Positions 18,205 to 35,914 of a stretch of DNA of 64,000 nt are shown here, piece after piece. The DNA comes from a virus, in IMG/VR virus record IMGVR_UViG_3300033145_000668, positions 31,175-95,174 of that record; one strand, 5' to 3'. Position numbers and translations under genes: made by a program. How positions within the stretch are numbered: the first letter of the stretch is position 1; each line of letters starts with the position of its first letter. The notes below the pieces were generated by a model, which made no database searches, was not told where the DNA came from, and saw only the letters and a list, made by a program, of their open reading frames with translations.

Positions 18205-18341
18205 TTTTTATTCCATTATTTAATTTATTTATATATAATTGAAAAGCAAAAAATACTTCTTCTTCAAATGGTTTATCATTTATTCTTCCTTCTTCATTCA
18301 TAATTCCAGTTAATAATGCTTTTGCTTCTTTTACGCATTTA

Positions 18342-19637
18342 TCAAATATTTTTTTCGTCATTTTTTCTCCCAATTAAAATCTGTTCATAAAACGACCAAT
18401 CTTTCGGTGTTTCTTTTATCTCTATTCCATATGATTCAATTAACTTAATCCATTCTTCTTTTGTTTTTTTCTGTATATGTGTTGAGTCTGCTTCTAAATT
18501 TGGGTCTCCTATGAATGGAATTGAAAATAAAAATTTCTTTCCATATTTAGATATATTTGTTAATGTTTTATCTAAATCTTCATCTGATAAATGTTCTAAA
18601 ACATCTATTGCTGTTATTAAATCTGCTTCGCATCCAATATATTTTTTTTCATTACTAATATCTCCTATTATCATTCCGGAAGTAAATGCATTTTTTATTG
18701 CCCACTCACTTATTTCTATTCCTAAACTTTTGTTAACATACCACTTCCAAAAGTATAAATAACATCCTCTTCCGCAACCTAAATCTAAAACACTCTCGGG
18801 GTTAAAATAGTCATTCCATTGCTTAACCATTAAACTATGTTTAACTTCTAATCCTCTATTAGCGAAATAAATCTCATCTTTATCAATACTAAATTTATTT
18901 AAAATAATCTCCGGTAACTCAATAGGATTTAATTTTGTAACAGGATACATTCCAAATAAATGCGCTCTACTCCAATTATTCAAAAAATCTTTTTCGTGAC
19001 TAACATCTTTTAGATGTCTCAACATTTGACCATCATATCTTTTTTTAACATCCCATACACCTCCAACATAGCCCATGTGCCAAATAACACCATTATGAAA
19101 ATTATAATTTTTTAATTCTTTAGCAGATAAAATACAATGTTCTGCATCTGGAAAAAATTTATCATTTGTAATTTTAAATACTCTAATAGGAACAAAATGA
19201 ATTGGCTTAGTAGAATCTTCATGACATAAATTTCCAATTAAGTGTCTCATTCTTGGATTAAACGTATCATTATCTTCCCAATCATGTTCATCTAATAATT
19301 TTCTATAAGCAGAAAAATCATCTACTATCTCATCAGAGTCCAAATATAAACACCAATAATCTTTATAATTTTCTTTTAAATAATTTAACCAATAATTTTT
19401 TTGTTTTGATATTGCTAATTTATCTTTTTGAATAAATTTATTTTTAATTATATCTATTTTATCGTCTGGTTTTTGATTTCTGCAAAATTCTAGTACCATA
19501 TCTAATGTATTATCTGTACTCCCACCATCGCAAAAAACAATCGCATCTGCGGTTTTAACCGATTCTAAGCACATATCAATTGTATTTTCACAATCTTGCC
19601 CCATGATAACACACACTATGCGATTTTTATTTTTCAT
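18342..19637 (-). CDS. GT2 glycosyltransferase fused to class I SAM methyltransferase
   Basis: 'DGGSTDNT', 'LDSDE'; 'VLDLGCGRG', 'DVLEH'. Confidence 0.85.
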   Translation of the reverse strand: MKNKNRIVCVIMGQDCENTIDMCLESVKTADAIVFCDGGSTDNTLDMVLEFCRNQKPDDKIDIIKNKFIQKDKLAISKQKNYWLNYLKENYKDYWCLYLDSDEIVDDFSAYRKLLDEHDWEDNDTFNPRMRHLIGNLCHEDSTKPIHFVPIRVFKITNDKFFPDAEHCILSAKELKNYNFHNGVIWHMGYVGGVWDVKKRYDGQMLRHLKDVSHEKDFLNNWSRAHLFGMYPVTKLNPIELPEIILNKFSIDKDEIYFANRGLEVKHSLMVKQWNDYFNPESVLDLGCGRGCYLYFWKWYVNKSLGIEISEWAIKNAFTSGMIIGDISNEKKYIGCEADLITAIDVLEHLSDEDLDKTLTNISKYGKKFLFSIPFIGDPNLEADSTHIQKKTKEEWIKLIESYGIEIKETPKDWSFYEQILIGRKNDEKNI

Positions 19638-19765
19638 TTTGAGTATATATCATTTTTATTTTTCCGCAATTATTACAAATTACTTCTGTTCGTTTTTTTA
19701 AATCATTAATCATAATTCTGAATAATTTCTTTTTACAATCATCGCATCGTTGTCTTTGTTCCATC

Positions 19766-21001
19766 TTAATAACTACCCCCCAATTCTTCTATAACTTTTT
19801 TCCACTCTTCTTTTAATACATTCCAGTCGTAGAATTTCATGACAGCATCTCTTCCATTTATTCCCATTTCTTTTCTTTTATCTGGATTATTAAATAAATA
19901 ATCTAATTTTTTAACACCATCTTTAATACTACAAATTCCTCGTTCTACTGCCCACGAACCTGTTATTGTTCCATCTATTATTTCTGTTCCATGAACGTCT
20001 GGATTTTCTTCTTCTGTTGTTCCAACCAAATTTATTCCTAAACCTGCATTATTATCAATCACAAGTTCTTTAGTAGTAGTATAATTCGTAGCTAATACCG
20101 GAACCTGACAAGCCATTGCTTCGATTATAGGAATACCAAATCCTTCTCCGGATGTAGTTAATAAAAAACAATCCATTACATTATAAACTTCATTCATATC
20201 TTTTTCATCAAATCCTTTATAATATTTAGTACCAGTAAAAAATACTCTATTTTGAATTCCATATTTATTTATTAAAGAATTAATTGGAAAAACTTGTGCA
20301 TTATCATCGGGGTCACAATGTAACATTAAAACAGCATTAGGATTTAGTTTAGCATATTCTCCCATTATTTTTAATGTTCTATCTAACATTTTTCTTCCTT
20401 GATTTCTTGCCACTACTCCAATAACAAACTTATCATTTACTCCCCACTTTTGTCTTAATCTATTTCTTTCTTCTATAGAAACTGGAAAATAATTTGAAAT
20501 ATCTATTCCGTGAGGTATATGGCGGGTTTCTAAATTATGAACTTTTTTACATTGTTCTTTACCAAATTTAGCCATCGCTATCGGTACATCTACTTTCCTT
20601 AGAATATTTTCACAACCAAGCGGCATCCCTCCTCCACCATCTGAGGGAAACCAAAAGATTGTTTTAGCTGGAGATAAATCTAATTCAAGTAAAAATGGAT
20701 AAAGCATGAAGGTGTCTAAAAGTATTATAAGAACATCTATTTTAAACTCCTTAACATAAGTCGATAATAAATCTTTAAAATAAGCTTCTCTACCTTGTCC
20801 CATAATTGTGAAGTTTAATTTTCTACCATCTTCAAATGTTACTGGAGGAACTATCGTTTGTCCTACATAAGTGTGAGCAAAATATCTAACATTATGTCCT
20901 TCTTCTACTAATATGTTTCCTAAACTTTTTGCCTGATTCGAGTACCCTGTTGTTATAAATGGAGAATCACTTAGTATTCCTATATTAAAACTTGTTTTCA
21001 T
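19766..21001 (-). CDS. Glycosyltransferase family 4
   Basis: 'SDSP..TTGY', 'IPHGID', 'RNQGRK', 'GEGFGIPIIEAMAC'. Confidence 0.9.
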   Translation of the reverse strand: MKTSFNIGILSDSPFITTGYSNQAKSLGNILVEEGHNVRYFAHTYVGQTIVPPVTFEDGRKLNFTIMGQGREAYFKDLLSTYVKEFKIDVLIILLDTFMLYPFLLELDLSPAKTIFWFPSDGGGGMPLGCENILRKVDVPIAMAKFGKEQCKKVHNLETRHIPHGIDISNYFPVSIEERNRLRQKWGVNDKFVIGVVARNQGRKMLDRTLKIMGEYAKLNPNAVLMLHCDPDDNAQVFPINSLINKYGIQNRVFFTGTKYYKGFDEKDMNEVYNVMDCFLLTTSGEGFGIPIIEAMACQVPVLATNYTTTKELVIDNNAGLGINLVGTTEEENPDVHGTEIIDGTITGSWAVERGICSIKDGVKKLDYLFNNPDKRKEMGINGRDAVMKFYDWNVLKEEWKKVIEELGGSY

Positions 21002-21317: not shown

Positions 21318-22010
21318 TTAAAATATCTTAATTTTTTCTCCAGTTTCTATACAAATGTCATAAACATGTAATTTTAATACATCGCCTTCTTTTACTTTTT
21401 CGGAAACTCTTCTATATGTATAGTCTGGAATTTTATCTCCTTCTGTTGGTTTTTTTCTGCATCCTTCTCCTTCGTAATGCCACATACCAAATTCGTTAGG
21501 TACGAAATTATAACCTTCTTCTAACAATTGTTCTCTAATTTTTAGATTATGTAAACCCTGATGATAAAGTTCTTCACTTTCGCTCAGTACACAATTGCTA
21601 CAACGAAACGCATATGCAATATTAACATTATTTTCTGAATCTATTATATAACCATTACCTATTCTTTTAAATTTAGTGTCTAAAGGAAATTTAAACATTT
21701 TACTGCCGCACAATCTACAAATAATAAATTCATTTTCTGATAATAAATCTTTTATTTGTTCTTTCATATTCAAATTAATTTTTCTTATCATAACTAATTT
21801 TTCTATTTTTTCATTTATTATTTTATCTTCATGAGATGGTTGTATTAAATTAACTCCATCTATCTTAAGTAAATCTGCTCGTATATTTTCGAGTTCTATT
21901 TCAATATTTTTTAATAAATTAGAAAAAAAGTTTCTACTAGTATCAATAGTTTTAACTAATCTCAACTCATATCTATTTTCTTTCGACTTTATATAAAATT
22001 CAAATTCCAT
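21318..22010 (-). CDS. Hypothetical Zn-finger protein
   Basis: CRLCG and CSNC pairs; own TATA upstream. Confidence 0.55.
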   Translation of the reverse strand: MEFEFYIKSKENRYELRLVKTIDTSRNFFSNLLKNIEIELENIRADLLKIDGVNLIQPSHEDKIINEKIEKLVMIRKINLNMKEQIKDLLSENEFIICRLCGSKMFKFPLDTKFKRIGNGYIIDSENNVNIAYAFRCSNCVLSESEELYHQGLHNLKIREQLLEEGYNFVPNEFGMWHYEGEGCRKKPTEGDKIPDYTYRRVSEKVKEGDVLKLHVYDICIETGEKIKIF

Positions 22011-22076
22011 TTTTTTATAATATAATTAACAAATTAGCATTTATAAACAAGTTTATAATTTATTGTTTATATTTTA

Positions 22077-22718
22077 TTATTTATATTCCAGTTCATCCAC
22101 AGATAACTTTTCTTGTTCGGGTTCAATGTCGTTATCTATCATTTCTTTTAATTCTGTTAACTCTTTTAATTTACTTTCGACTAATGGTTTGTCTAACTTC
22201 ACTGGAAATATTTTATTTATTTGTGTATTTTTATTCTCATAAAGTATCATTCCATTTTCTAAATTTGAAAAATATAAATAGAATTGTAATTGAAATATGT
22301 GAGAATTCAGAGGTTCTGTTAATTTTTGAAATGACCATAGGTTCATGGATTTAATTTCAACGATATAGTTTTTTTCACCATCTGTTATTATACAATCTAA
22401 TCTCCCCTTAACTATGTCATTGGCATTAATATCTATTTCACTGGCTACAAGAACTCCCATTTCTGCAAAATACCGTGCATATCTTTCATGCACCGAATCT
22501 CCATTATCAAAAACCTTTCTTAGATTTGCATTTATTTTAAACTGACTTCCTTTCTTTAATGTATCGAACAATTCCTTTTTAGATTTAGTTACCTCAGTAA
22601 CATAGAAATAATCTCGTATTCTCGGAGTAGTTTGCTTACTATCTAAGTGAAAGTCTATTGCTTTCTGCAAATCAAACTTATCTTCTTTTTCAAAACCGAG
22701 TCTAGATTTTATTGTCAT
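22077..22718 (-). CDS. Cas4-like PD-(D/E)XK exonuclease (recombination)
   Basis: 'GDSVH', 'KGRLD', 'VEIKS', 'QLQFY'. Confidence 0.8.
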   Translation of the reverse strand: MTIKSRLGFEKEDKFDLQKAIDFHLDSKQTTPRIRDYFYVTEVTKSKKELFDTLKKGSQFKINANLRKVFDNGDSVHERYARYFAEMGVLVASEIDINANDIVKGRLDCIITDGEKNYIVEIKSMNLWSFQKLTEPLNSHIFQLQFYLYFSNLENGMILYENKNTQINKIFPVKLDKPLVESKLKELTELKEMIDNDIEPEQEKLSVDELEYK

Positions 22719-22768
22719 ATTATATGCTATCAACAATTTAAATAAAAATAAAATCTAGAATCTCAGTT

Positions 22769-22951
22769 TTATTTTTTCTTTGTTTTGTTGTTTTTAACAG
22801 CTTGTTTCATTGCCTTTTCTTGACATTTTCTACAAACGTGCTTATTTAGAGTTCCAGCTTCTTCCTTTATCTTGTATTGCTGGTAGTTAGTTTTCTTAAC
22901 CGCTCCACATTTTTTACATTTTACAGTGTACATTTTTCCTTGTGTCTCCAT
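22769..22951 (-). CDS. Small Zn-ribbon protein
   Basis: CKKC...CRKC. Confidence 0.5.
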   Translation of the reverse strand: METQGKMYTVKCKKCGAVKKTNYQQYKIKEEAGTLNKHVCRKCQEKAMKQAVKNNKTKKK

Positions 22952-23000
22952 TTTAATTGGTTATGGCAAGATTATGTCACTTATAAATGTTTGCTTTTTG

Positions 23001-25439
23001 TTAAAATAGCGTCTTCTGACCGCTTAATTTTAATTTTGCGATTGCTACAATTTTATCCAATTCTTTCATTCTACCCAATACTTCATAAATTGGTTTTGCT
23101 TTTTGATATATATTTTTTATTACCATTGCCGACCAATCTATTTTAATATTTTTATCTTTAAACTGTGTTTCATCTTCGAAGCACATAACATCGGACACTT
23201 GTCCTGTAATATATAATAACTTAAATTTATTTCCTTCTCTTAATCTTAAACCTAAATTTTCATTGCTCCACTTCACTCCTCTAATAACCGGACGATTCGC
23301 TGGTTTAGTTGTTGTATGTCCTTCTTTATCTGTTCGTGTAATAGTATATTTTTCAATTGCTTTATTTAACTTAGAAGGAATAGCAATATCATTTAACTCT
23401 ATTTTTCTCATAATCATATCATCGATAGTTTTACAAACATAATCATTTAATAAATTAAAATCATCTTGCATTAATAACAATCTAAATAACTCCTTTTGAA
23501 AAACTTTTGACATTGGAGCAGTGTCGCTTCTCCTAACTTGCATTCCGCACGCTTTAATTTTATCACATTCTTCTCCATCATCCCAAGTTGTTCTTAAAAC
23601 ATATCTTTTCTTAGTTTGAATAAAAGCTTTTTTAGCAAACTTTTCGAATTCCATATTAATAGTACTCTTCGGCATACCTAAATCTTCTATTACAAACTTT
23701 TCAATTTGGTCGTTAATTAATTTTTGTAATCTTTTTCCTTCTACAATTGGGTCTTTATCTTTAGGAATTACAAATCCAATAGAATCAGTATCAGACATAA
23801 CATGAGTATATCCTGTATCTTCTACAACTATATCTCTAGCTTTACAAATTAATTGTCGAGCATTAGCTGTTACTGCATTTGCTAATCGCAAATCATTCAT
23901 TCTAAATCCATTAGATGCGAATACACCCCAAATACTATTGATAACGATTTTAATAGCAAACATTTTATCTCGTAAATCCTGTCCTCCAGTTCCTTGCATT
24001 TGTTCTTTTAATTCTTTTTTTAGTTGTAGCAAATCATCAATTACGCTTGGCATAATTCCTTGTCCTTGTTGGTCGACTTTTAAACCGGTTTCAATATTAA
24101 CAATTATTCCATCGTCGCTAATTTTTTCTTTACTTAAATTAAAAGTTTTAATAATATTTGGATACAATCCACTATAATCAAAAAATACTACATTATCATA
24201 TAATCCAGGATTAGTAAAAACATAAGCTCCTTGAAGATGTTCGTCTTCTCCTCGTTCTCTAAAAATAGGTTTAGTAGGAAATGATTTTTGAGTATTATAT
24301 TTTTTTAATATCTTAGTATCGTGAATTCTCGACATATAAAAACAATCAGTAATATTTCTTACTCCAGCAAAGTTTCTAATTTGTTCAAACAAATCTAATA
24401 ATTTACACTTCTCATTAATTCTAACTACTAATTCAACATCTTTTATATTATAATAAATCAGTTCTTCTAGGTTTTCCCTCCACGATTTGCTCATATCATG
24501 CACTGGTAACTTCTGGTCACCGAGCTCAGTATCAGCAACGCTATTTAAAGAATAACTCGCTAATTCTCCAAAGTGTAACTGTCTGTACATTTTTAAAGAA
24601 TCTGCTAATACTAATCCTAATATTTTTATTTCTCCCTTCATCATCTTTGCTACTCTTGCATTAAAATCAATTCCGTGCCACATTACTGTGTCGAGCGGAT
24701 TAGTAAAAGAACATAACTTTTCTACATCAATCTCTAAATGTTCCAGACGAGCATATAAATATCCTATATCGAATCCAATGTTCCATGCCGTTAATATGTC
24801 ACCGTCTTCACAATTAAGATAAAAAAGAAATTGTCTTAACATTTGGTCTTCATTATTAAAATAGTAAATAGTTTTATCGCCGTCTTTTTTAATTACACTT
24901 TCAATATCTTCTCTCCAAACATATGTAACATATTTATTACTAAAACTATCGTGCGCCGTAATGCAAGTTATTTTTTCAACAGGATTATCATTATCAGGAA
25001 ATCCTTTATCGCAAGTTGTTTCAATATCAAATGTTATTGTTTTATATTTTGTCGACTCAACCTTCTCAACTTTATCTATCATATATCGCATATCAATAGA
25101 TAAATCTAATTCGTATGTATTATCTAAATTACCTCGTAAGTCTGTAATATATTTTTTAAAAAATAATTGTTCTTTAGGATGATTAAATATAATCTTATAA
25201 ACCGGTTCTCCGTAAATATCATTAGGACCAAATCCAGACATTTGAGCATAAGTTGGAAGTATAAAGTTTTTACTTTTTAGGAGAGTATCGTTAACATAAC
25301 AATATGGCTTAAAATCAGTTACTCGTCTAACTTCTTTTGTTCCGTCTTTATTTCTAATAAATAAAAGTATAGTTGGCACACCATTAATAATCTTAGAACT
25401 AATATCATATAATCCAATATACGTGTCTCGTTGCGTCAT
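23001..25439 (-). CDS. polB: Family B DNA polymerase
   Basis: ExoI 'FDIET', ExoII 'WNIGFD', ExoIII 'YNIKD'; pol motifs 'DYSGLYP', 'KIVINSIWG', 'SDTDS', 'KKRY'. Confidence 0.95.
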   Translation of the reverse strand: MTQRDTYIGLYDISSKIINGVPTILLFIRNKDGTKEVRRVTDFKPYCYVNDTLLKSKNFILPTYAQMSGFGPNDIYGEPVYKIIFNHPKEQLFFKKYITDLRGNLDNTYELDLSIDMRYMIDKVEKVESTKYKTITFDIETTCDKGFPDNDNPVEKITCITAHDSFSNKYVTYVWREDIESVIKKDGDKTIYYFNNEDQMLRQFLFYLNCEDGDILTAWNIGFDIGYLYARLEHLEIDVEKLCSFTNPLDTVMWHGIDFNARVAKMMKGEIKILGLVLADSLKMYRQLHFGELASYSLNSVADTELGDQKLPVHDMSKSWRENLEELIYYNIKDVELVVRINEKCKLLDLFEQIRNFAGVRNITDCFYMSRIHDTKILKKYNTQKSFPTKPIFRERGEDEHLQGAYVFTNPGLYDNVVFFDYSGLYPNIIKTFNLSKEKISDDGIIVNIETGLKVDQQGQGIMPSVIDDLLQLKKELKEQMQGTGGQDLRDKMFAIKIVINSIWGVFASNGFRMNDLRLANAVTANARQLICKARDIVVEDTGYTHVMSDTDSIGFVIPKDKDPIVEGKRLQKLINDQIEKFVIEDLGMPKSTINMEFEKFAKKAFIQTKKRYVLRTTWDDGEECDKIKACGMQVRRSDTAPMSKVFQKELFRLLLMQDDFNLLNDYVCKTIDDMIMRKIELNDIAIPSKLNKAIEKYTITRTDKEGHTTTKPANRPVIRGVKWSNENLGLRLREGNKFKLLYITGQVSDVMCFEDETQFKDKNIKIDWSAMVIKNIYQKAKPIYEVLGRMKELDKIVAIAKLKLSGQKTLF

Positions 25440-25440
25440 A

Positions 25441-26202
25441 TTATAACACCCGCTTTACCATATCTATATTATATTGTATTGTGTTTAACTGGTCTTGTGT
25501 TAATTCAGAAATATTATGGTCTAATCTTTCTAATGGTTCCGTAATACATTCATCTAACTTAATTCCCATCGAACCTAACTTAAAACAAATATTCGAATCC
25601 ATACTTCTTACCAACGGATATTTTTTATATGTTTCGATTTCGTGAATTAAATAATGATTAGCTCCAGCACAATGAATTGGCTTCCTAACTAAATCTTGTT
25701 CGTGTAAAAACTCTAAACATTTAATTCTACAAATTGCAAAATCTTTTGTTCCTGCCATTTCTGCAAACGCTTCCACAGAATATTTACTAATAGCAATTAC
25801 ATCTATGCTTGGATGATTTAGCATCCATTTGTAGCAAGATATCCATTCGCTTGCGTTTTTACCTTGCGGAAGACCAACAATTCTAAAATTAATTTTATCG
25901 TTTGTTGTTAAGTGTGAAATAAACTCTTCTGTTAATCTTACAGTTTCTTCATAATCGTATAACTTATCACTTGCCCAAATTTCATTACTATTAACATCTC
26001 TAGCAGATTGTATTACTTGTTCGACTGGAGAACTAACTCCATTTTCTGCAGCCATATTATCTGTGATTTTATAATTTTTATGGTCCCTATAATAAGCAGT
26101 ATATTCAGGATTGTTATTTATCCAATCACAAAGAGTGAATGCTATTTCTCCTTGCTCTGAGAATTCTGGATAGTTTATTCCTGCTATAAATCCGAATTTC
26201 AT
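25441..26202 (-). CDS. TGT-fold guanine transglycosylase-like protein (DpdA-like)
   Basis: 'ITDNMAAE' (cf. xDNS/DSGxF/E), 'GLPQG', 'PIHCAG' (cf. IHLLG), 'RSMDSN' (cf. SxDSS); adjacent to que genes. Confidence 0.65.
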   Translation of the reverse strand: MKFGFIAGINYPEFSEQGEIAFTLCDWINNNPEYTAYYRDHKNYKITDNMAAENGVSSPVEQVIQSARDVNSNEIWASDKLYDYEETVRLTEEFISHLTTNDKINFRIVGLPQGKNASEWISCYKWMLNHPSIDVIAISKYSVEAFAEMAGTKDFAICRIKCLEFLHEQDLVRKPIHCAGANHYLIHEIETYKKYPLVRSMDSNICFKLGSMGIKLDECITEPLERLDHNISELTQDQLNTIQYNIDMVKRVL

Positions 26203-26990
26203 TTCGAACCTCGCTCATTAAGAATCTTTATTTTACTATAAATGTTAACATCTTCTTTAGTATAAGAATTATTTGCATTATTTTTTATTTTCCTATTATG
26301 TTTTTGTCTATTTAATAAATATTTTTTTAATAATATAGCTTGTTCTTTTTTAACGTATAAATGCGGTATAATTAAATCGCATAATTTAATTAAATCAACT
26401 TGTTTCGAAAACTTTACATTATAAGTTCTTTTCCACCTATTATTAGGATGTTTATAATCTGATATATTAATAATAGTAGACGATACATATTTATTAAAAA
26501 TATTTACACAACGTTCTATTGATTTTTTATGTGTTCCGCCTATAGAGATACCATAAGCATATGCAATACCATTTTTTCGCTTTGTCTGCCATATTCCAAT
26601 ATATCCCTCACCGTCTATAAAACCACACAACCACAACAAATCTGGGTCATAATTATTTTCAATATATGCTCCGTAATAACCATCTTCATTTATTTCAACT
26701 TTAACCTCTCGATTTTTATATTTTTTTTCAATTCTTTGTTTTAATGCTGACGCCATCATTTCACAACTTTTATTTTCAGTTAGTTTTATTTTTTTAATTA
26801 AACTATCTATATATCGCTGAAAACATATATATTCTATGTCGCGGTTATCGTGAAATTGTTCTATCCAAACGATAACTTTAAACTCATGATGGTGTTCATT
26901 TTTTAAAAAATCAACTTGTTTAATATTACAATCTACCCATTTATGCGTGTCTCTAAAGGATGTAGTTACTTTTGCAAATATTTTAATCAT
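26199..26990 (-). CDS. QueD-like T-fold protein (DpdL-like) fused in frame to a LAGLIDADG endonuclease
   Basis: N-terminal 'H.W', 'LKNEHHHEF', 'RDIEY', 'SCEMMA', 'EDG'; C-terminal 'WLCGFIDGEG', 'PHLYVKKEQA'. Confidence 0.75.
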   Translation of the reverse strand: MIKIFAKVTTSFRDTHKWVDCNIKQVDFLKNEHHHEFKVIVWIEQFHDNRDIEYICFQRYIDSLIKKIKLTENKSCEMMASALKQRIEKKYKNREVKVEINEDGYYGAYIENNYDPDLLWLCGFIDGEGYIGIWQTKRKNGIAYAYGISIGGTHKKSIERCVNIFNKYVSSTIINISDYKHPNNRWKRTYNVKFSKQVDLIKLCDLIIPHLYVKKEQAILLKKYLLNRQKHNRKIKNNANNSYTKEDVNIYSKIKILNERGSK

Positions 26991-27128
26991 TTATTATTTC
27001 TCCTATACTTTTTAGTTTTATTTTACATAACGTACATCTTCTACCACCAATTTTATCAACATACACGCCTCGTCTGTTACAGCGTTCACATCTTAAAATT
27101 TCTAATACTTTTTTAACTTCATAATTAG

Positions 27129-27956
27129 TCATTTTAAATCTCTACCGCAATTTAATACTGCAACAGCTTTATGCTGGTGAATTGATTCATTATGATTTAT
27201 TACAATTACATAATCATTAATTACATCATCTAAAATTTTATCTAATTCAATGGAAATATCTCTACTCATATCTTCAACAAATTTAGGATTATTATAAGCT
27301 GTTTCTGTTACATATTTTTCATCCGGTCTTTTTAATACTGACCATATAGGACAACTAGCACAATTTTCTACTATATTTATTATTTCTTCAATTAAAACAT
27401 CTTCTTTTAATTCAACAGTAACCGAAGCATTAGATAATTGATTATGAGCAGAATATTCTGAAATTTCTTTACTGCAAGGACATAAACTTGTATAAGGAAC
27501 GTTTACAGTTAAATATATTTTATCTTCACCATTAATACTTTTACCTTCTATCGTACAAAGATAATGTACATAACCTTTTATTTTACTAACCGGTGCTTCT
27601 TTTTTAAGAAAATAATTAAAATGAACTTTTATATAACTATCATTTGAATTTAATTTTTCCTTTAAATCTATTAATAATTGTCTAATAATATCTGTACTAA
27701 CGTAATCTTCTTCTAAAACATCATGTATTAAAATCGGTAACCTACTCATAGAAATTCCTTTTTCTTCTTCACTTAATGAAACATAAATACTCACATCTCC
27801 AACAGTAGACCTTATCTTTTTATTATGGTCTAATATTTTAATAGGAACGATTAAATCTCTTATACCAACTTTATTTATTTTTTTATGCCTCGCGTCTTTT
27901 TGTTCTTGAACATCTGGTAACGCATTTTTTAATTTTTCTAATTCAATTGAGTTCAT
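27129..27956 (-). CDS. folE2: GTP cyclohydrolase IB (FolE2)
   Basis: 'LPDVQ', 'KGISMSR', 'LCPCSK', 'AHNQ', 'LKRPDEKYVTE', 'PKFVED', 'ESIH'. Confidence 0.92.
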   Translation of the reverse strand: MNSIELEKLKNALPDVQEQKDARHKKINKVGIRDLIVPIKILDHNKKIRSTVGDVSIYVSLSEEEKGISMSRLPILIHDVLEEDYVSTDIIRQLLIDLKEKLNSNDSYIKVHFNYFLKKEAPVSKIKGYVHYLCTIEGKSINGEDKIYLTVNVPYTSLCPCSKEISEYSAHNQLSNASVTVELKEDVLIEEIINIVENCASCPIWSVLKRPDEKYVTETAYNNPKFVEDMSRDISIELDKILDDVINDYVIVINHNESIHQHKAVAVLNCGRDLK

Positions 27957-28314
27957 CTTCACCCTCCCAGGGGAAGACCAACCATTCGTTCTTCTTACCT
28001 TTTGTTTCAATAAAAAAATCAGGTTTAACCTTAGTCCACTTTGAATTATAAATACAAGCTATCTTTTTATTTTTTACATTTTGTAATGTTGTTCCTGTAT
28101 CTGAAATATCATCGCACACCAAAGTATTTTTAGTAGGATGTATTAAAATAGGTAATCTTAAAACGTGACTCATTTTAACTGCAACTGGTAATCCGCCTCT
28201 CGGCACTCCATAAACACCATCAAATTTTATTTTAGAATCTACTACCATGTCAGCTAACTCATCTATCATAGCTCCTACTCCTTCCCATTTAATATAAATA
28301 TATTTTTTTGTCAT
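27943..28314 (-). CDS. Type I phosphoribosyltransferase (Gpt-like)
   Basis: 'GVPRGG', PRPP loop 'LVCDDISDTGTT', 'WLVFPWE'. Confidence 0.88.
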   Translation of the reverse strand: MTKKYIYIKWEGVGAMIDELADMVVDSKIKFDGVYGVPRGGLPVAVKMSHVLRLPILIHPTKNTLVCDDISDTGTTLQNVKNKKIACIYNSKWTKVKPDFFIETKGKKNEWLVFPWEGEDELN

Positions 28315-28484
28315 TTTGAATCTCCCATTATTATATCTGTTAATCCTCGTTCATATAAAAAAGTATCTTCTGGTTCAATTCCCAAGTCATTGCATGATTT
28401 ATAATATGCAACTGCATTTTGAATTTGTTGATATTCTATTCTTTTATCATTTAATTCTTTTAGCTTTACTTCATAAGGTTTCAT

Positions 28485-29111
28485 TTAAACTCCTTTCTCA
28501 TTGCCCCATACATCAATATGTATTCTCTGGCAATATTTTTTATTATTTTTAACACAATAATTCCAAACATCTTGTTGAATTTTTTTATCTTTTTCTTTAT
28601 CATTTGTTGTTAAAGGCATAAGCATTGTTGCATCTGATATCATATCTTTATTCATTTTTAAATCTGTAACTATTTTTATATCACATTTTGTTGACTCATC
28701 TAATCTTTCAGAAAACGCTATAACATTTTGTTGAGCTCGCTTATGCTTTGGACTAAATGCAATATAAGAAAATAAATCAGCATACAATGGAAGAATGTCA
28801 CCATTTGTTTCTAGATGATGGTATATATATTCTTCTATGTTATAGATTCCAAATCCACATTCTTGTATTACTTCATATATTTCATCTTGTTGTAACATTG
28901 GCTCTCCTCCTGTCCAGACAACAATATTACATTTACTTTTTTTAATTTCTTTTGTAATTTGTGCAACTGACATTTTTTTTCCTTTAATATGATACTTTGT
29001 GTCACAGAAGTCGCAATTTCTATTACATCCAGATGTTCTTATAAATAATACTGGGTGACCAGAATATTTACCTTCCCCTTGAATTGATTTAAAAATTTCT
29101 GAGATTATCAT
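28485..29111 (-). CDS. queE: 7-carboxy-7-deazaguanine synthase QueE
   Basis: 'EIFKSIQGEG', 'FIRTSGCNRNCDFCDT', 'TGGEP', 'LETNG', 'SPK'. Confidence 0.93.
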   Translation of the reverse strand: MIISEIFKSIQGEGKYSGHPVLFIRTSGCNRNCDFCDTKYHIKGKKMSVAQITKEIKKSKCNIVVWTGGEPMLQQDEIYEVIQECGFGIYNIEEYIYHHLETNGDILPLYADLFSYIAFSPKHKRAQQNVIAFSERLDESTKCDIKIVTDLKMNKDMISDATMLMPLTTNDKEKDKKIQQDVWNYCVKNNKKYCQRIHIDVWGNEKGV

Positions 29112-29380
29112 TCTTTATTATCTCCAACTTTAATTTCATCTAAACTTATTTCTCTTACTGAGCCATCTGGATAACTACAACAATCAAAATATGCAATAGT
29201 ACCATCTTTGAACGTTATCTTAATATTTCCAATTTCACTATCTTCTATTTTTAAAAATTCTTTTCCTATTAGTGCTTCTGCTTCGTCATAAATATGCCTT
29301 AAAGTTTTATCGCAACACTTTCCGGGCATGCCTACATCATCATAAATCTTACCACAACCGTGACAAATATATTTAGTCAT
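29108..29380 (-). CDS. Hypothetical Cys-rich protein
   Basis: CHGC...CC; overlaps both neighbours. Confidence 0.5.
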   Translation of the reverse strand: MTKYICHGCGKIYDDVGMPGKCCDKTLRHIYDEAEALIGKEFLKIEDSEIGNIKITFKDGTIAYFDCCSYPDGSVREISLDEIKVGDNKE

Positions 29381-29796
29381 TCTAAATCCTCCGAATCAAT
29401 TTCACAATAAGAATTTGGACTCTCATAAACTTTAATTTTATAAGATAATCTATCATCCATTTGTTTTAGAAGTTTTAATATTTCATAACATAAATTCTCT
29501 GCTGTTGAATTTTCATCCATCCAATAAATTGCACCATCTCCGCAAATAAATGTAATCATTCCACCTAACTCTCTATTTTCCTCACAATCTTTTAATATAG
29601 TTTTATGGTCAAAATATTCCTTTAATTTTTTACGATTAGTAAAGTCCCAAAGAATTCCTACATCATCAAAATGCTTATCGTCACCATTTATTTCGAGATG
29701 AACCTCCCACCTATGACCGTGTAAAAAATTACATTTACCATCATATCCAACCAGTCTATGTGCTGCATCAAAATCGAATCTTGTGTTTAATTTCAT
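29377..29796 (-). CDS. queD: 6-carboxytetrahydropterin synthase QueD
   Basis: 'FDAAHRL', 'CNFLHGH', 'FDHK', 'TAENL', 'YES'. Confidence 0.93.
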   Translation of the reverse strand: MKLNTRFDFDAAHRLVGYDGKCNFLHGHRWEVHLEINGDDKHFDDVGILWDFTNRKKLKEYFDHKTILKDCEENRELGGMITFICGDGAIYWMDENSTAENLCYEILKLLKQMDDRLSYKIKVYESPNSYCEIDSEDLE

Positions 29797-29874
29797 TTAT
29801 TGTTTTGTTTATGTTTACTTGTGTTTTAATTTAAAAAAAATAAAAAATAATATATCCAAACTAGTATTAAACAC

Positions 29875-30300
29875 TTAAATACTAATTCTTAATCTTCCGT
29901 TGTTAGTTTTTGGATTAACTTTCTTAATAATTACGACTTCAGTTCCGATTACATTTTTAAATGCATCAACTTTGTACTTAGCAAGGAATTGTGCTGTTTT
30001 TGACTTTTCATGCATACCAACAATCCACTTCCCATCCATCTCTTTAAGATTATAAGTTTCTACATGAGTAATTGCTCTTCCAATTTGCTCAGCTCCAAAT
30101 TCTTCAGTTATTAATTTAATTACTTGTACATCTCGCAACTGTCCTTCTGGTAACGGTTGTCCATCAAGTCCAAATTTTGATGTGCTTTCATCAACATCAC
30201 ATTCTTTAATCTTTACTCTTGTACCGTCCAATTTATCCATTTCTTCTTCCGATGGACCTCCAAATTTAACATACTCTAGGTTATCTACTTTTTCTGACAT
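29875..30300 (-). CDS. Hypothetical protein, possible ssDNA-binding (OB-like) protein
   Basis: Beta-rich, strong GGAGGT RBS, located in the replication module; function is inference only. Confidence 0.35.
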   Translation of the reverse strand: MSEKVDNLEYVKFGGPSEEEMDKLDGTRVKIKECDVDESTSKFGLDGQPLPEGQLRDVQVIKLITEEFGAEQIGRAITHVETYNLKEMDGKWIVGMHEKSKTAQFLAKYKVDAFKNVIGTEVVIIKKVNPKTNNGRLRISI

Positions 30301-30468
30301 TCTACTATACCTCCTTTCATTACGCCTTCTTCGTTTTTTCGGTTACTTATGCAACCTTCTTTTATTCGAAAACTATTATTAATTTTATTTTGTTTTTTCA
30401 TATTTTATTAAATTGTTATTTACTTATAAACACATTTATAGAGTTTTATTTATAATCTATTATATATT

Positions 30469-32700
30469 TTACATTTCATTTGAATCTAGGTAACTATTTC
30501 CTGCCTCGTTTATCATTATCATTGTATTTCTTCCAGATTCAAAAGTTCCTATTAATTCTAAATCTATTAATTGTTTTATCATTTTTGACCTCATATTCGA
30601 TGTCTTTATTTTGAATCTATTTTCTAGTTCATAATGCATTTGCATTTTTGGCATGCTGCCCTTTAATGATAATAATTTTAAGATAGAAAACTTTATTTTT
30701 TTATCTTTATTTTGACTAGTAACTAAAATCTTAATACTATCAATACACTCCATAATAATATTATAACAACTTTTAATCATTTTTTTCTCTATTAGTGTTT
30801 GTTTTCTCCAAACAGCATCCAGCACACATAATTTATATAAATGAACACTTTCTCTTCTAACCATTGAATTTAAAATTTCTTTATCTATTGCCATAAATTC
30901 ACTATAATTTGCTTCAGCTATTTCCCACAAGTCATCAACAAAATTATCACTACCAGCTTCAAATTTAAAATCTTTTTTATTTTCTTCATACCATTTTTTC
31001 ATATCTCTTAATTTTTCTAATAATTTCATAATGTATTTTTCTTTATTAAAACTTTTTTCCGTCTTAGTATTAAATTTAGATTTAACAATATGCTTTCTAA
31101 TTACTTTATGGTCAACGTCTGTTAAATCTTTTAAGTAAAAAATAGCTCTTTGAAACAATCCATTATGTAAAATAGCATTTACAATATTATCCATTTTATA
31201 AGTTGTTAAAACTATTGAAGTATTTGTTGTAACAGGAATACTATAACCGGCAACTCCTTTTTCAATTCTTCTCGACTTATCCATAGCTTGTCTTAAAATA
31301 ATTTGAACGTGTTTATTATGCGCTCCTGGTCTAAAAATACTTTCTGATTCTGACAACGCTAACCAATGAGTATTTTCTAACCAACCTTTTTCAATTGGAT
31401 TTTTATAAGTCTTACTACCATTAATTTGATTTTCTTCTGTTAATCCGTTTTTGGTATTAAATTCTACAGCTACTTGATTTACCGCACCTAATAATGTTCT
31501 ATCTGTAACTTCGGCTGGTCTTTTTGTAATATATTTTAATCGCTCTAATATTTCATTAATTAAATTAACACCCTCATCTTTTCCAGAAGTAGAATATGAA
31601 GAAAAAATTAAATGAACTCTTAAGTCGTCTTGTTTTTCATCTAATATGGTTCCTAATAAATTATAAAAGCAAAGTTCTTTCCAAACAGGTTGTTGAGCAA
31701 TACTATTATCCCAAATCTTATCCCATAATTGTTTAATAGTATAAAAATCAATAATTTCTTCACCGTTATTTAGTTCATACATAACAGGATAATCGTGTTC
31801 AATAGACCACTGAACCATTTCTGATTTATTATATTCTGTTATTTGACCGTCCATTGCTTTATCAACCCAACCCATAAACTCACCTACATTTTTCCCAGGA
31901 CAATTTTCTACTATTTTTTGAGCATAATTTGTAGCTATTTCATCTTTTGTTAAACCGCTTAATACTAATCCAACAGCTAGATTTTTGAACAGCGTGTTGT
32001 TTCTATCTCCGTTTTCTATCATATTATTCATCGCGTATTTTAAATAAGGGTCGTTTAAATGAAAGTCGACTATTATCTTCTTATTTTCTATTTGCTGTAC
32101 TTTTTTATTTTCAATATCTTTTTTACAATATTCAATTATTTCTTCATCAATTAAATTTTTTTCATTTGTGTTTACTGTATCATATAAATATTTTTCTTTT
32201 CCTGTTTTTAAGTGTTTAGAATATTCAAGAGCTAACCATTGATTTTCTTTCGCTAGTTTTTCATCTGTTCTAAAATATGTAATTATATATTTTCTTATTC
32301 TGTTTCTTAAATCTAAATCCAATTTTGCAAAATTGTCAAATAATATAGATATATGATAACCTCTCGAGCCAGTGTCCCAAATTACATAACTCCAATTTTT
32401 TTCAGTTAACTTTGTTTGAATATCATGTATTTTATATTTTTCCTCGACATCTAAAATTATTTCGTTTTTAAAACTTTTTCTTAAATTTATTTCAATTTTT
32501 TCATCTTCTGATAATTCAGAAATAATCTTTTCAGAAATCCATCTATTTTTATGTTTGCATTTTTTACAAACACCATAGGTATCTAAATCGGCTGACTTAC
32601 AACCATTACATACTTTACTATTATACATAACTTTCATTTCAGAATTCTCTTTAAGTATTTTCCTTAAAAAATTCTCTTTAAGTTTTTTATAATTAGTCAT
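30469..32700 (-). CDS. Primase (AEP)-helicase fusion with MCM-like AAA+ and winged-helix C-terminus
   Basis: AEP 'ILDVE', 'TGSRGYH', 'HLKTG'; PriCT-like 'GDRNNTLF'; 'STSGKD', 'LRQAMD', 'GLFQR'. Confidence 0.7.
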   Translation of the reverse strand: MTNYKKLKENFLRKILKENSEMKVMYNSKVCNGCKSADLDTYGVCKKCKHKNRWISEKIISELSEDEKIEINLRKSFKNEIILDVEEKYKIHDIQTKLTEKNWSYVIWDTGSRGYHISILFDNFAKLDLDLRNRIRKYIITYFRTDEKLAKENQWLALEYSKHLKTGKEKYLYDTVNTNEKNLIDEEIIEYCKKDIENKKVQQIENKKIIVDFHLNDPYLKYAMNNMIENGDRNNTLFKNLAVGLVLSGLTKDEIATNYAQKIVENCPGKNVGEFMGWVDKAMDGQITEYNKSEMVQWSIEHDYPVMYELNNGEEIIDFYTIKQLWDKIWDNSIAQQPVWKELCFYNLLGTILDEKQDDLRVHLIFSSYSTSGKDEGVNLINEILERLKYITKRPAEVTDRTLLGAVNQVAVEFNTKNGLTEENQINGSKTYKNPIEKGWLENTHWLALSESESIFRPGAHNKHVQIILRQAMDKSRRIEKGVAGYSIPVTTNTSIVLTTYKMDNIVNAILHNGLFQRAIFYLKDLTDVDHKVIRKHIVKSKFNTKTEKSFNKEKYIMKLLEKLRDMKKWYEENKKDFKFEAGSDNFVDDLWEIAEANYSEFMAIDKEILNSMVRRESVHLYKLCVLDAVWRKQTLIEKKMIKSCYNIIMECIDSIKILVTSQNKDKKIKFSILKLLSLKGSMPKMQMHYELENRFKIKTSNMRSKMIKQLIDLELIGTFESGRNTMIMINEAGNSYLDSNEM

Positions 32701-32893
32701 CCTCTTTTATTTCTAATCGTTTAATTGAACTCCTAAGAAATGGAGTTGGAATTGAGTCCGATAATATTGTTAGAAATACATGCGTTTCATCATAATCAAT
32801 AAAAATTCCATCTCGTGGTCGAATTTTATTACCGTCTATTACATATAACCTTACTTTTTTATTTTTATATAAATCCCAAATTTTTTCCTTCAT
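32693..32893 (-). CDS. Sm/Lsm-like protein
   Basis: 'NKKVRL...G.FIDYDETHVFL...FLRSSIKRLE' fits the Sm1/Sm2 pattern. Confidence 0.5.
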   Translation of the reverse strand: MKEKIWDLYKNKKVRLYVIDGNKIRPRDGIFIDYDETHVFLTILSDSIPTPFLRSSIKRLEIKEDD

Positions 32894-33146
32894 TTAATCC
32901 TTTTACTCCTTTTAAAATGATATAAATTAGAAACAATAATTAGTTTTAAACATATTTATAAAGAATTATATATAATTTATTGTATTTATCTACTACTTTC
33001 GCTTTTTTTGTATAATATCGCACTCACAAAATTTACAAAGCTCTATTGATAGATATTTTTTATAATTAACTCCTTTCGGAATTTTATAATATTTCTCTTT
33101 ATCGCAGTTTTCGCATCTAACTTTTTTACTATAGAATTCTGTCATT

Positions 33147-33428
33147 TTATAAATATCTTATTAAAATGTCATTAAAACTTTCTTTAGATATTGAACCACT
33201 AAATCGTTCGAGTTCCACGCCATCATCTAAAAGAAGAAACGTTGGAAGAGACATAACATTATATTTTTTAGCTATAGATTCTTCTTTTTCAACATTAATT
33301 TTAACAAATTTTATTTTATTTTTAAATTTTCTACTTAAACTATCAACAATTGGAGACATTAATTTACAAGGTGCACACCAATCAGCATAGAAATCGATTA
33401 CAACAAGTATGTTATCTAAATTTTTCAT
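33147..33428 (-). CDS. trxA: Thioredoxin
   Basis: 'DFYADWCAPC', 'SLPT'. Confidence 0.93.
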   Translation of the reverse strand: MKNLDNILVVIDFYADWCAPCKLMSPIVDSLSRKFKNKIKFVKINVEKEESIAKKYNVMSLPTFLLLDDGVELERFSGSISKESFNDILIRYL

Positions 33429-34249
33429 TATTGTAAAGCAACATTAATTTTATGTTTACTACCATCTAAAGTTAATAATGGAGAACCTTGTCTTGCAGGT
33501 TCCATAGATTTTATATGAGCATAAGAATTCCAATATTTTAAATAAGCTCCAGTTAATATAAAGTGTTTTGACTTTCTATCAATAGTTTTACTTCTTTTAT
33601 TTATTCCGTAACATTCTCGTACATGATGACTTAATTGATGTAAGTGTCCCATTGCATAAATTTCAACGTCGTCGATAATTTTTTCTAAATCTAATACACC
33701 TTTAATTTTAGTATGAGCCATTCTCGCTCCACTTGCACCATGAGTAGTATAAAGCGAATACGATTCTTTTCCTACTCTAAAAGAAATAGGTTTTGCAACG
33801 CCTAAATATTTACCTTTAATTTGTCTGCACATGTGTCTCATAATATTTACTCCATCATCTTTAAATACTCTCGCTTCGTGATTTCCAACATGTGCTCCAA
33901 GAAATAATCCTTCTTTAACAAACGGTTCATAAATAGCCATCCAATCTGACATTTGTTTATCTAAAATATCTTCTTGTTCATAAACACCAGAACCAACAGA
34001 CCCTCTAGTTGCGCTTTCAACACCGTCACCCATATGTAAAATATGTATTTTATTATTATAAGCCCATTCAAGATTATTCATTAATTTTTCTCTATTATGT
34101 TGAGCGTTTCCAATATGCTCATCACCAACCAGAAAAATTTGTAATTGGTCTAAATCAAATTTTTTGTAAAAAAGAGTTGGATTTTCTTCTTCATATCGTA
34201 AGTTTTTTTCTGTTTCTAATTTATTTCTTACATTATCTTTATAACTCAT
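33428..34249 (-). CDS. Calcineurin-like metallophosphoesterase
   Basis: GDEH, GD, GNHE, HG, GHLH motifs. Confidence 0.88.
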   Translation of the reverse strand: MSYKDNVRNKLETEKNLRYEEENPTLFYKKFDLDQLQIFLVGDEHIGNAQHNREKLMNNLEWAYNNKIHILHMGDGVESATRGSVGSGVYEQEDILDKQMSDWMAIYEPFVKEGLFLGAHVGNHEARVFKDDGVNIMRHMCRQIKGKYLGVAKPISFRVGKESYSLYTTHGASGARMAHTKIKGVLDLEKIIDDVEIYAMGHLHQLSHHVRECYGINKRSKTIDRKSKHFILTGAYLKYWNSYAHIKSMEPARQGSPLLTLDGSKHKINVALQ

Positions 34250-34312
34250 TTTGATGTATTATACTTAAGTTATTTCTGTTTAAAAATGTTTAAATAACAC
34301 CTATATAGATAA

Positions 34313-34651
34313 TCAATAATTATTATTTTTAAGATGTTCGTGAAGATAACCCATGCAATTAAACATCAATCCACAAATGGCTTCTTCGATTCCTTCTCTT
34401 GATTTTATTCCTCTATGCTCTTCCCACCAATCAAAAAAGTGTCTAAATCCAGATTTCATATATTCTTCTTTCGGCATTCCCTTTTGCCAATTATCCGAGC
34501 TTCTTATTGTCCCGTCCTTTTGAAATCTATTTTTGTGCATATATTCAGCAAATCGTTTTAGAACTATTGGACTCAGGAAACCCTCGAAGTCTAATTTATC
34601 TTCATCGGTGTCTCGAGTTGCTCCGCTGGCGAACTTTCTTACTTTTGTCAT
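34313..34651 (-). CDS. dATP/dGTP diphosphohydrolase-like (DUF5664-like) protein
   Basis: 'F.SGATRD', 'LSPIVLKRFAEYM', 'NWQKGMP', 'RH', 'FN'. Confidence 0.65.
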   Translation of the reverse strand: MTKVRKFASGATRDTDEDKLDFEGFLSPIVLKRFAEYMHKNRFQKDGTIRSSDNWQKGMPKEEYMKSGFRHFFDWWEEHRGIKSREGIEEAICGLMFNCMGYLHEHLKNNNY

Positions 34652-35280
34652 TGTTTGTGCCTAGGTCCTTCAGAGAACCAATCGAACATATCTCTTCGAA
34701 GTTTAGCCATTCGTCCATCTGGATGGGTAAATACTATTCCTTCAACAAAATGTTCTGTTTCGTTTTCTTCTGTTTTTCCGTGTATTCTTAAATTATATAA
34801 TGGCATTAATTCTCTAAACCATTCTCTTATAGATTCAAATGTTTTTGGATACTTACCCCAACATTTATACATAAGATGGTTTTGTCCATAAGTTTCAAAT
34901 GGTATCCATATATGTTCATCTAAGTTATAAGGATTACCATTAATTTTTGGGCCAATACACTCGCCAAAATGTTGGCCATCTCCTAAAAATTCAGTATAAC
35001 CTTTTGAATAAGAATTCATAATTCCTATAATTATATGTTGTTTACCTTTATTAAAAAACGGTATTCTTTCTGTTCTGTTCCACACAGCTGTGATTACTCC
35101 ATCTGTTATATTTATAGAAACATTAGTACCATGTAATTTTTCAACTGCCATTACCGACTCGTCTTCAAACACCCACTCCATATCTTCTGCTATTTCATCT
35201 GTAACTATGTAGTGTCCATCTATTTCTTTTCTCACAAATGGTGAATATAATTTTGGCATGTCTTTTATTTTATCTATCAT
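34648..35280 (-). CDS. ATP-dependent RNA ligase (Rnl2-like nucleotidyltransferase domain)
   Basis: Motif I 'EKLHGTN', 'FGECIG', motif IV 'EGIVF', motif V 'AKLR'. Confidence 0.75.
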   Translation of the reverse strand: MIDKIKDMPKLYSPFVRKEIDGHYIVTDEIAEDMEWVFEDESVMAVEKLHGTNVSINITDGVITAVWNRTERIPFFNKGKQHIIIGIMNSYSKGYTEFLGDGQHFGECIGPKINGNPYNLDEHIWIPFETYGQNHLMYKCWGKYPKTFESIREWFRELMPLYNLRIHGKTEENETEHFVEGIVFTHPDGRMAKLRRDMFDWFSEGPRHKQ

Positions 35281-35320
35281 TTTATTTTATAGCATTTATG
35301 GTTTATAAATGTATTTATAA

Positions 35321-35818
35321 TTAATTATATATAAATTCTTTATATTTAACAATAATTTTCCTACCTTGCCTTTCTTTTGATGCAATTAGTATTTTTGAAA
35401 ATACTCGGTTGTCTAAATACCACTTACATTTCTTTCGCTCAGTTTTATTTAGGTAGCTGTTGATTTTTGATTCTACTCCGATTACTTCGCACACTTCGAC
35501 ATAAATACCATCTTCATTTTTCATAGATTTATATGGTTTATATGTTCGTTTAAATGCAATAAAATCAGGAAAGCCAGTTCCTATCGCCATTACTTTATTA
35601 AAAGGATTAAACTTTCTTTTTGCTGGGATTATTTTTATTTCTCCAGAAAAGTTTCCTTCGTCGTTATCAAATTTAACACATTCTAAATTATTACTCCACT
35701 TATCCACAATCCACCCATTCGCCTCGAGGTCTTTCCTCACCTTTAACTCAAATACAGCGCCTGCTGCTTTATTCTTTTTACCTTGCTTTACTTTTTTTGG
35801 GTCTTTTATTTTTTCCAT
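35321..35818 (-). CDS. Holliday junction resolvase (Hjc-like PD-(D/E)XK)
   Basis: 'GAVFELKVRKDLE..GW', 'PDFIA', 'GVESK'. Confidence 0.75.
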   Translation of the reverse strand: MEKIKDPKKVKQGKKNKAAGAVFELKVRKDLEANGWIVDKWSNNLECVKFDNDEGNFSGEIKIIPAKRKFNPFNKVMAIGTGFPDFIAFKRTYKPYKSMKNEDGIYVEVCEVIGVESKINSYLNKTERKKCKWYLDNRVFSKILIASKERQGRKIIVKYKEFIYN

Positions 35819-35914
35819 TTTCTGACATTAATTTTAAAAATTTTGGTCCTAACCAAATCAAACCTAATATTAATCCTATTTTTATGAATTTATCAAACAT
35901 AGTTTCTTTCTTTT

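Follow-up and report, generated by a model that had tools for sequence, protein, structure and literature searches.

The viral contig IMGVR_UViG_3300033145_000668, a linear IMG/VR record of 95,174 bp estimated to be ~68% complete, carries beside its family B DNA polymerase gene (polB) a run of genes that is probably a 7-deazaguanine DNA-modification module of the DpdL/DpdA3 type, a gene-for-gene homologue of the one in Cellulophaga phage phiST. The base it is predicted to place in DNA is unsubstituted 7-deazaguanine (DG; dDG in DNA). We analysed bases 31175–95174 of the record, a stretch of 64,000 nucleotides called the window below, whose positions we use unless another contig region is named. 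A preliminary description, made from these letters alone, had proposed a deazaguanine DNA-modification cluster without QueC and, as its product, either DG or 7-carboxy-7-deazaguanine (CDG; dCDG in DNA). Gene content and synteny with phiST bear out the cluster; of the two bases, dDG is the best prediction, because the gene order agrees with that of phiST, in whose DNA dDG replaces every G (Cui et al. 2023), and dCDG is the less likely, every invariant residue of DpdL being intact.

The DNA of phiST contains 302,000 dDG per 10^6 nucleotides and shows neither a dG peak nor dCDG, and its genes run QueD-QueE-FolE-MazG-DpdL-x-DpdA3 before the polymerase genes (PMC10516641). In the window QueD, QueE, a GTP cyclohydrolase, DpdL and DpdA3 follow an almost identical order, likewise ending at polymerase genes and likewise without QueC. 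It departs from phiST in having FolE2 instead of FolE, a purine phosphoribosyltransferase (PRTase) where phiST has a MazG/dUTPase-like gene, no homologues of CGPG_00064 and CGPG_00066, and a DpdL fused to a LAGLIDADG endonuclease; moreover, the virus looks archaeal, whereas phiST is a phage of Flavobacteriia. The core system of CDG genes, DpdL, DpdA3 and polymerase is already known from phiST (PMC10516641). The new elements are the probable archaeal host, FolE2 for FolE, an apparently host-derived PRTase, the DpdL–endonuclease fusion and a sister virus that bears QueC.

A DpdA3 transglycosylase with the TGT fold

The best isolated-phage matches of the protein encoded immediately before PolB include CGPG_00065 of phiST (BLASTP E = 5e-20, 29% identity over 222 residues; tblastn E = 1e-12) and its relatives. 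CGPG_00065 was named DpdA3 by Cui et al. and is the founding member of that subfamily (PMC10516641), and this homology places our protein there. Identity with DpdA4 was rejected: BLASTP to gp69 of the haloarchaeal virus HVTV-1 is not significant, and PF20314 (DUF6610) has no match in the contig at E <= 1. The two subfamilies are distantly related (hhalign of the DpdA3 family profile against HVTV-1 DpdA4, 70%, E = 3.9e-5), and PF20314 touches 8/80 members of the DpdA3-like family.

An exhaustive HMMER search collected 1023 cluster representatives of the family at E <= 0.001. In an 80-member alignment D48, R159, H177, G180 and D202 are invariant, and N49, E53, D79, Q113 and G114 nearly so. The AlphaFold2 model built from this alignment is a (beta/alpha)8 barrel (pLDDT 97.8, pTM 0.93), for which Foldseek ranks first the tRNA-guanine transglycosylases (TGTs) of human, mouse, archaea and bacteria (probability 1.0, E = 4e-6 and higher). 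Alignment of the 80-member family with five TGTs in hhalign (probability 94.7%, E = 6e-8) equates D48 with the Asp of DSGGFQ, D79 with the base-binding Asp of the LD motif and D202 with the nucleophile Asp of MFDS; Q113-G114 pairs with QGG, and H177-G180 with LMGAG. PDB sequence searches with the protein and the family profile returned nothing significant, TGT and DpdA entries appearing only at E ~0.4, and it is the fold search and hhalign that settle the question of fold. With the barrel modelled and the catalytic aspartates aligned, the protein is best described as a true TGT-fold enzyme, as had been supposed, with all three TGT active-site aspartates. It is not, as had also been suggested, a divergent DpdA with unusual motifs (DNMAAE, IHCAG): DN(G)AAE and HxxG are conserved motifs of its own family, which makes it an ordinary DpdA3, and only Met50 is atypical, relatives usually having Gly, Ser or Cys there. 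Its predicted function is that of a DNA base-exchange enzyme.

DpdL in the place of QueC

QueC (PF06508), TGT (PF01702), QueF (PF14489), the ArcS core (PF17884) and DUF6610 (PF20314) have zero matches across the 95,174-bp contig, so the absence of QueC, QueF and ArcS first noted for the window holds in family searches of the rest of the contig too. The cluster encodes, besides QueD itself, a second QueD-like T-fold, which the preliminary description had set beside DpdL. Its N-terminal domain matches the DpdL of Acidovorax phage ACP17 (tblastn E = 1e-13) and that of phiST (BLASTP E = 2e-8), as well as stand-alone DpdL homologues of 108–129 aa (identity up to 58%). The DpdL signature reads L29-KNE-H33-H34-H35-E-F37 (LxxxHHHxF); relative to the published LxxxHRHxF, Arg has become His, and the Leu, the Phe and both metal-binding His are kept. 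H16, R50, E53, S75-C76-E77 and E102-D103 align with the family as well, and all 13 columns invariant among 13 family members are retained (13/13). The modelled domain (pLDDT ~90) is a T-fold of beta-beta-alpha-alpha-beta-beta topology, with Pyrococcus horikoshii 6-pyruvoyltetrahydropterin synthase (2dj6) and Escherichia coli QueD (4ntk) as top Foldseek matches (TM 0.74–0.76). Family residues and fold both fit the earlier suggestion, and on this sequence and model evidence we identify the QueD paralogue as DpdL, the putative CDG decarboxylase.

The rest of the same protein is a LAGLIDADG homing-endonuclease domain (phrog_5046 E = 1.8e-13 over residues 117–249; PF00961 E = 0.005; a GFIDGEG motif; weak I-OnuI fold matches). 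No stop codon separates it from DpdL, and the contig holds no second copy. An intein was considered and rejected: the DpdL domain is complete before the endonuclease begins, and nothing follows the endonuclease. From its sequence, the protein is a read-through fusion of DpdL with an inserted homing gene. DpdL is unfused in the closest relative, locus L005. LAGLIDADG, NUMOD3 and HNH genes together amount to several homing-endonuclease-like genes in this virus, the HNH gene lying outside the window (L003:8125-8976).

To place the cluster among its relatives, viral contigs were scanned for loci with close DpdA3 relatives. The scan was seeded with an 11-member alignment, the 80-member one being too divergent as a seed, and gave 43 loci; a second set of records (n=50) came from a scan with the PRTase. 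DpdL adjoins DpdA3 in 9/43 loci, and QueC is present in 0/9 of their records, against 25/34 of those without DpdL. The PRTase scan contributes nine further DpdL-positive records, all QueC-negative. Two records with DpdL and no QueC (G059 and G070) are bounded by terminal repeats and both estimated complete. Over the combined 93 viral records, QueC occurs in 0/18 with DpdL and 56/75 without it (Fisher p = 2.4e-9, not a true probability, given the kinship among the records). Across these related viral records, DpdL and QueC exclude each other.

Gene order points in the same direction. Locus L009 has the order of the window, QueD-QueE-PRT-FolE-DpdL-DpdA3. A sister virus (L049; IMGVR_UViG_3300033149_005609, 1205–7841) is recognized by its PolB (E = 1e-112) and by a conserved 141-aa protein, and has the order orf141-QueD-QueE-x-PRT-QueC-DpdA3-FolE-PolB; its QueC occupies the slot held by FolE2 and DpdL in the window. 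In a tree of DpdA3, one weakly supported branch can be drawn that has the 12 DpdL-linked enzymes all to one side. The enzyme of the window pairs with that of L005 (SH-aLRT, the Shimodaira–Hasegawa-like approximate likelihood ratio test, 97), and the QueC-linked DpdA3 of the sister virus falls in another clade. The transglycosylase therefore seems to travel with the tailoring enzyme and not with the polymerase, a pattern that fits a DpdA3 adapted to the base it inserts.

One site in DpdA3 follows the same division. S139 is conserved throughout the DpdL-linked members, and most QueC-linked enzymes have another residue there. At S139-K140 (25786–25791), 12/12 DpdL-linked enzymes have Ser followed by Lys or Arg (I-x-x-S-K), and most QueC-linked members have Pro-Arg, Pro-Lys or Ser-Tyr, making this a candidate specificity determinant.

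A purine phosphoribosyltransferase and the proposed pathway

The remaining enzymes are those expected for CDG synthesis. QueD keeps its CxxxHGH motif in the alignment with the DpdL family. The best five NCBIfam matches of QueE are all QueE models, far below their cut-offs (75 vs 260 bits). The GTP cyclohydrolase is of the FolE2 type, as originally read: the NF010200 equivalog model scores 259.3 bits over a cut-off of 215, and the archaeal MptA model 138 bits under a cut-off of 220, with GCH-IV models also below their cut-offs; its probable start is the ATG at 27956. The 90-aa Cys-rich reading frame between queD and queE has no Pfam or PHROG family, a faint match to a rubrerythrin-like domain (E = 0.046) and no homologue in any of the related loci compared. 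Its N-terminal CxxC...CC could mark a zinc ribbon or a small redox partner for a radical SAM enzyme.

The PRTase takes the place of the MazG/dUTPase-like gene of phiST. Among solved structures it is closest to the P. horikoshii purine PRTase 1vdm (E = 8e-13), followed by Sulfolobus solfataricus GpT-2; it has the same PRPP (phosphoribosyl pyrophosphate)-binding and C-terminal FPWE motifs as these archaeal 6-oxopurine enzymes. It differs from them in its shorter length (117–123 aa) and in the position of its gene inside a viral DNA-modification cluster; relative to 1vdm, ~25 residues are lacking between matched stretch 1 and matched stretch 2. Members of the family abound in viral contigs (>453 matches): among the 80 best loci, 64 have QueD, QueE or FolE genes within 8 kb of the PRTase, and in 55/64 the gap is <=300 bp. 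QueC is present in 31/50 records with the PRTase, which thus stands beside QueC-type and DpdL-type clusters alike and is therefore uninformative on which base is made; to judge by these neighbourhoods, it serves the deazaguanine pathway generally and not one base. In the searchable papers we found no mention of a PRTase in phage deazaguanine or CDG clusters, and the word 'phosphoribosyl' is absent from Cui 2023 and Hutinet 2019.

The closest cellular relatives of the PRTase (49–62% identity) are chromosomal genes in metagenome-assembled genomes (MAGs) of Woesearchaeota, Nanoarchaeota and Pacearchaeota (25–34% G+C), where the neighbours are housekeeping genes such as those for pyruvate:ferredoxin oxidoreductase, an ABC transporter and deoxyhypusine synthase. 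The PRTase tree unites the window, L048 and L049 with nine DPANN cellular genes in one clade (SH-aLRT 96); other viral deazaguanine-cluster PRTases lie in separate clades, and well-supported branches force >=3 label changes. The tree indicates that this PRTase derives from the probable host lineage, DPANN, apart from the PRTases of bacteriophage clusters. Its identity to housekeeping enzymes suggests ordinary 6-oxopurine specificity, and guanine salvage is the simplest and most likely reading of its role.

Together these proteins outline a pathway. FolE2 would convert GTP to dihydroneopterin triphosphate, which QueD would turn into 6-carboxytetrahydropterin and the radical SAM enzyme QueE into CDG. 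In QueC's stead, DpdL would decarboxylate CDG to DG, and DpdA3, in which both catalytic aspartates are present, would put DG in the place of guanine in viral DNA, probably at the majority of G positions or at every one, as happens in phiST. Each exchange would spend one GTP and free one guanine; the PRTase would convert the expelled guanine to GMP, refilling the GTP that the pathway uses, which would be of consequence if the host is a purine-auxotrophic DPANN archaeon.

Several points weigh against this pathway. The CDG decarboxylase activity of DpdL is itself only proposed, and reconstitution of dDG in E. coli failed (Cui et al., PMC10516641); exchange of guanine in DNA for 7-deazaguanine has been shown biochemically for no DpdA3 (PMC10516641). 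The 150-aa endonuclease on the C-terminus of DpdL could disturb oligomerization of the T-fold. The contig lacks about a third of the genome, which leaves the absence of queC unproven for this virus; the DpdL and QueC co-occurrence counts are phylogenetically non-independent; and a PRTase that also accompanies QueC-type clusters gives no support to a particular base.

Two alternatives keep the genes and change the order of events. Cui et al. raise CDG as a possible common substrate for DpdA3, which serves both 7-amido-7-deazaguanine (ADG)- and DG-containing phages (PMC10516641). Were CDG inserted by our enzyme, the DNA would carry dCDG, or DpdL would decarboxylate the base after insertion, and the fusion to an endonuclease might weaken DpdL. 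We consider this unlikely, given that phiST has dDG and no dCDG in its DNA and that DpdL here keeps every invariant residue; the grouping of DpdL-linked DpdA3s to one side of a branch (itself weakly supported), with the QueC-linked enzyme of the sister virus elsewhere, also suits an enzyme matched to its base. The other possibility is a pre-replicative route at the nucleotide level, in which CDG or DG would be coupled to PRPP by the PRTase, the resulting nucleotide would lose its carboxyl group to DpdL, and 7-deaza-dGTP would enter DNA through PolB, leaving DpdA3 to act on nucleotides or as a back-up only. The embedding of the PRTase in the cluster and the abutting of the module on PolB would suit such a route, and replacement of every G, as in phiST, is more easily imagined as a pre-replicative event. 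There is also a precedent in the tubercidin cluster of Streptomyces, with FolE, QueD and QueE homologues, which likewise starts from CDG without QueC and reaches an unsubstituted 7-deazapurine through a PF00156 PRTase and a decarboxylation (bioRxiv 10.64898/2026.04.15.718813). That cluster, however, has no transglycosylase, relies on a UbiD decarboxylase and yields a free nucleoside antibiotic, whereas DpdA is always present alongside the genes considered here, the PRTase is of the archaeal 6-oxopurine type, and the contig contains no UbiD (PF01977), MazG, dUTPase-like or class I/II ribonucleotide reductase genes. With a PRTase so close to housekeeping enzymes and untied to one deazapurine, a nucleotide-level route seems quite unlikely, and synthesis of deazapurine nucleotides in the manner of TubE in the tubercidin pathway is disfavoured.

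Two further explanations would change the meaning of the cluster altogether. As the contig is estimated at 68% complete, queC might lie in the third that the contig lacks, and the virus might make preQ0 or ADG; this is very improbable when none of the 18 DpdL-bearing records has QueC and the sister virus carries its own QueC inside the cluster, at the place of DpdL here. We give equally little credence to the view that these are auxiliary metabolic genes for host tRNA modification or for pterin and folate supply. It has in its favour that folE and queC/D/E are classed with folate metabolism in a study of DPANN viruses (PMC12647753) and that the DPANN MAGs examined encode TGT, but the genes form one block with DpdA3 beside a DNA polymerase, as in phages with known modified DNA, and DG is no known tRNA precursor. 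Insertion of DG by DpdA3 after its formation by DpdL remains the pathway we favour.

Gene layout, host and wider context

The genes named in the preliminary description (queD, queE, PRTase, folE2, the QueD-like gene, the TGT-like gene and polB) were all confirmed where it had placed them, tightly packed on the minus strand in a run of reading frames (23001–30300) that extends from a 141-aa protein to PolB (Table 1). PolB starts 2 nt downstream of dpdA3. The 141-aa protein has a counterpart at the corresponding place of the sister virus (L049:1205-1681; phmmer E = 2e-23).

Table 1. Genes and domains of the deazaguanine cluster, in minus-strand order (window positions)
Feature	Position	Strand	Evidence and remarks
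141-aa protein, function unknown	29875..30300	-	upstream of queD; no Pfam, NCBIfam or PHROG match
QueD, 6-carboxytetrahydropterin synthase, 139 aa	29377..29796	-	PF01242 E = 3.8e-22; TIGR03367 E = 1.6e-18; phrog_2389
90-aa Cys-rich protein (CxxC...CC)	29108..29380	-	between queD and queE; function unknown
QueE, radical SAM 7-carboxy-7-deazaguanine synthase, 208 aa	28485..29111	-	phrog_2076 QueE-like E = 1.1e-33; PF04055; CxxxCxxC
Mini type I purine (6-oxopurine-type) PRTase, 123 aa	27943..28314	-	PF00156
FolE2, GTP cyclohydrolase IB	27129..28010	-	PF02649 E = 1.2e-77; NF010200
DpdL domain, residues 1–113 of 263-aa protein (26199–26990)	26652..26990	-	T-fold QueD paralogue
LAGLIDADG homing-endonuclease domain, residues ~114–263	26199..26651	-	in-frame C-terminal fusion to DpdL
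DpdA3, TGT-fold 7-deazaguanine transglycosylase, 253 aa	25441..26202	-	no Pfam match; homologue of phiST CGPG_00065
PolB, family B DNA polymerase	23001..25439	-	PF00136, PF03104; phrog_262 E = 4.5e-109

The suggestion that this is an archaeal virus is probably right. Among isolates, the capsid protein matches only haloarchaeal tailed viruses (E = 5e-13), and the same viruses provide the isolate matches to PolB with the highest protein coverage; with the PRTase, these make an archaeal host likely. A DPANN host is a reasonable guess, and the G+C content of the virus (28%) fits DPANN genomes. A DNA search with window 22000–41999 against 401 genomes of the phylum of a Woesearchaeota MAG found 10 genomes at E <= 1e-12, against one among 401 genomes of a Patescibacteria phylum; our conclusions do not rely on G341, G420, G431 and G458, which are unpublished. 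The matches in the DPANN phylum cover a thioredoxin gene and its neighbour (33.2–34.0 kb), the 3' part of folE2 and ORF (open reading frame) 35321-35818. The thioredoxin gene (PF00085 E = 7e-25) and the 273-aa neighbour (33147–34249) share 65–71% nucleotide identity over 200–590 nt with several MAG contigs of that phylum, and the 5' end of ORF 35321-35818 shares 77–85% over ~70–95 nt with about ten of its MAGs. Against an archaeal host stand a CCA-adding enzyme of class II, the bacterial/eukaryotic type, and the lack of any CRISPR spacer match. Queried with the capsid protein, the Atlas returned only "Uroviricota", which is no help on host, and two large reading frames of the structural region (L003:9057-10604 and L003:13010-14107) had no match among isolated phages.

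The Woesearchaeota/Nanoarchaeota MAGs G094–G096 (L178–L180; 0.7–1.0 Mb) encode a TGT of 379–390 aa with a full-length PF01702 match (E = 1e-131 to 1e-137). This is a short form; Thermococcus and Marine Group III genomes have forms of 560–580 aa.

Elsewhere in the window, ~16 kb of the minus strand (4937–21001) encode glycosyltransferases (GT4 and GT2), four radical SAM proteins (one B12-binding, one with a SPASM domain) and several methyltransferase domains, and look like a large virus-encoded glycan or sugar-modification cluster. Window 57032–63999 holds the class II CCA-adding enzyme, which has an HD domain, two NUMOD3/DUF559 endonuclease-like genes, an ATP-dependent DNA ligase and a Thg1-like protein, and an RNA-ligase-family protein is encoded at 34648–35280. 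A reading of ORF 35321-35818 as a Holliday-junction resolvase was unsupported: it has no Pfam family, and Rfam gives nothing there. The contig outside the window also encodes a 510-aa protein (L003:2005-3537) matching phrog_850, 'RNA-binding protein' (E = 1.7e-149).

The nearest described system in an archaeal virus is the DpdA4 (DUF6610) preQ1 system of HVTV-1. HVTV-1 resembles our virus as a tailed archaeal virus with a deazaguanine cluster near PolB and a distant TGT-fold relative, but it encodes QueC and QueF, and 30% of its G is dPreQ1. To our knowledge, only DpdA4/preQ1-type systems and unexplained dCDG had been reported for archaeal viruses. With the cluster described here, the phiST-type dDG pathway, so far one of Flavobacteriia and Proteobacteria phages, would reach a probably archaeal tailed virus.

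We put forward a wider reading only tentatively, as a possibility short of an even chance: that this is the first DpdL/DpdA3 system of a DPANN virus, with most or all G replaced, and that its guanine-type PRTase was taken from the host lineage, independently of bacteriophage deazaguanine-cluster PRTases, the PRTase step being convergently recruited and functionally required for guanine recycling or, less likely, for building a modified nucleotide. Whatever the standing of that reading, the host-derived PRTase, in a separate clade, adds independent evidence that small purine PRTases do real work in viral deazaguanine modules. The pair formed by our virus and its sister, in which a swap between QueC and DpdL goes with a swap of DpdA3, amounts to a natural experiment in the matching of transglycosylase and base.

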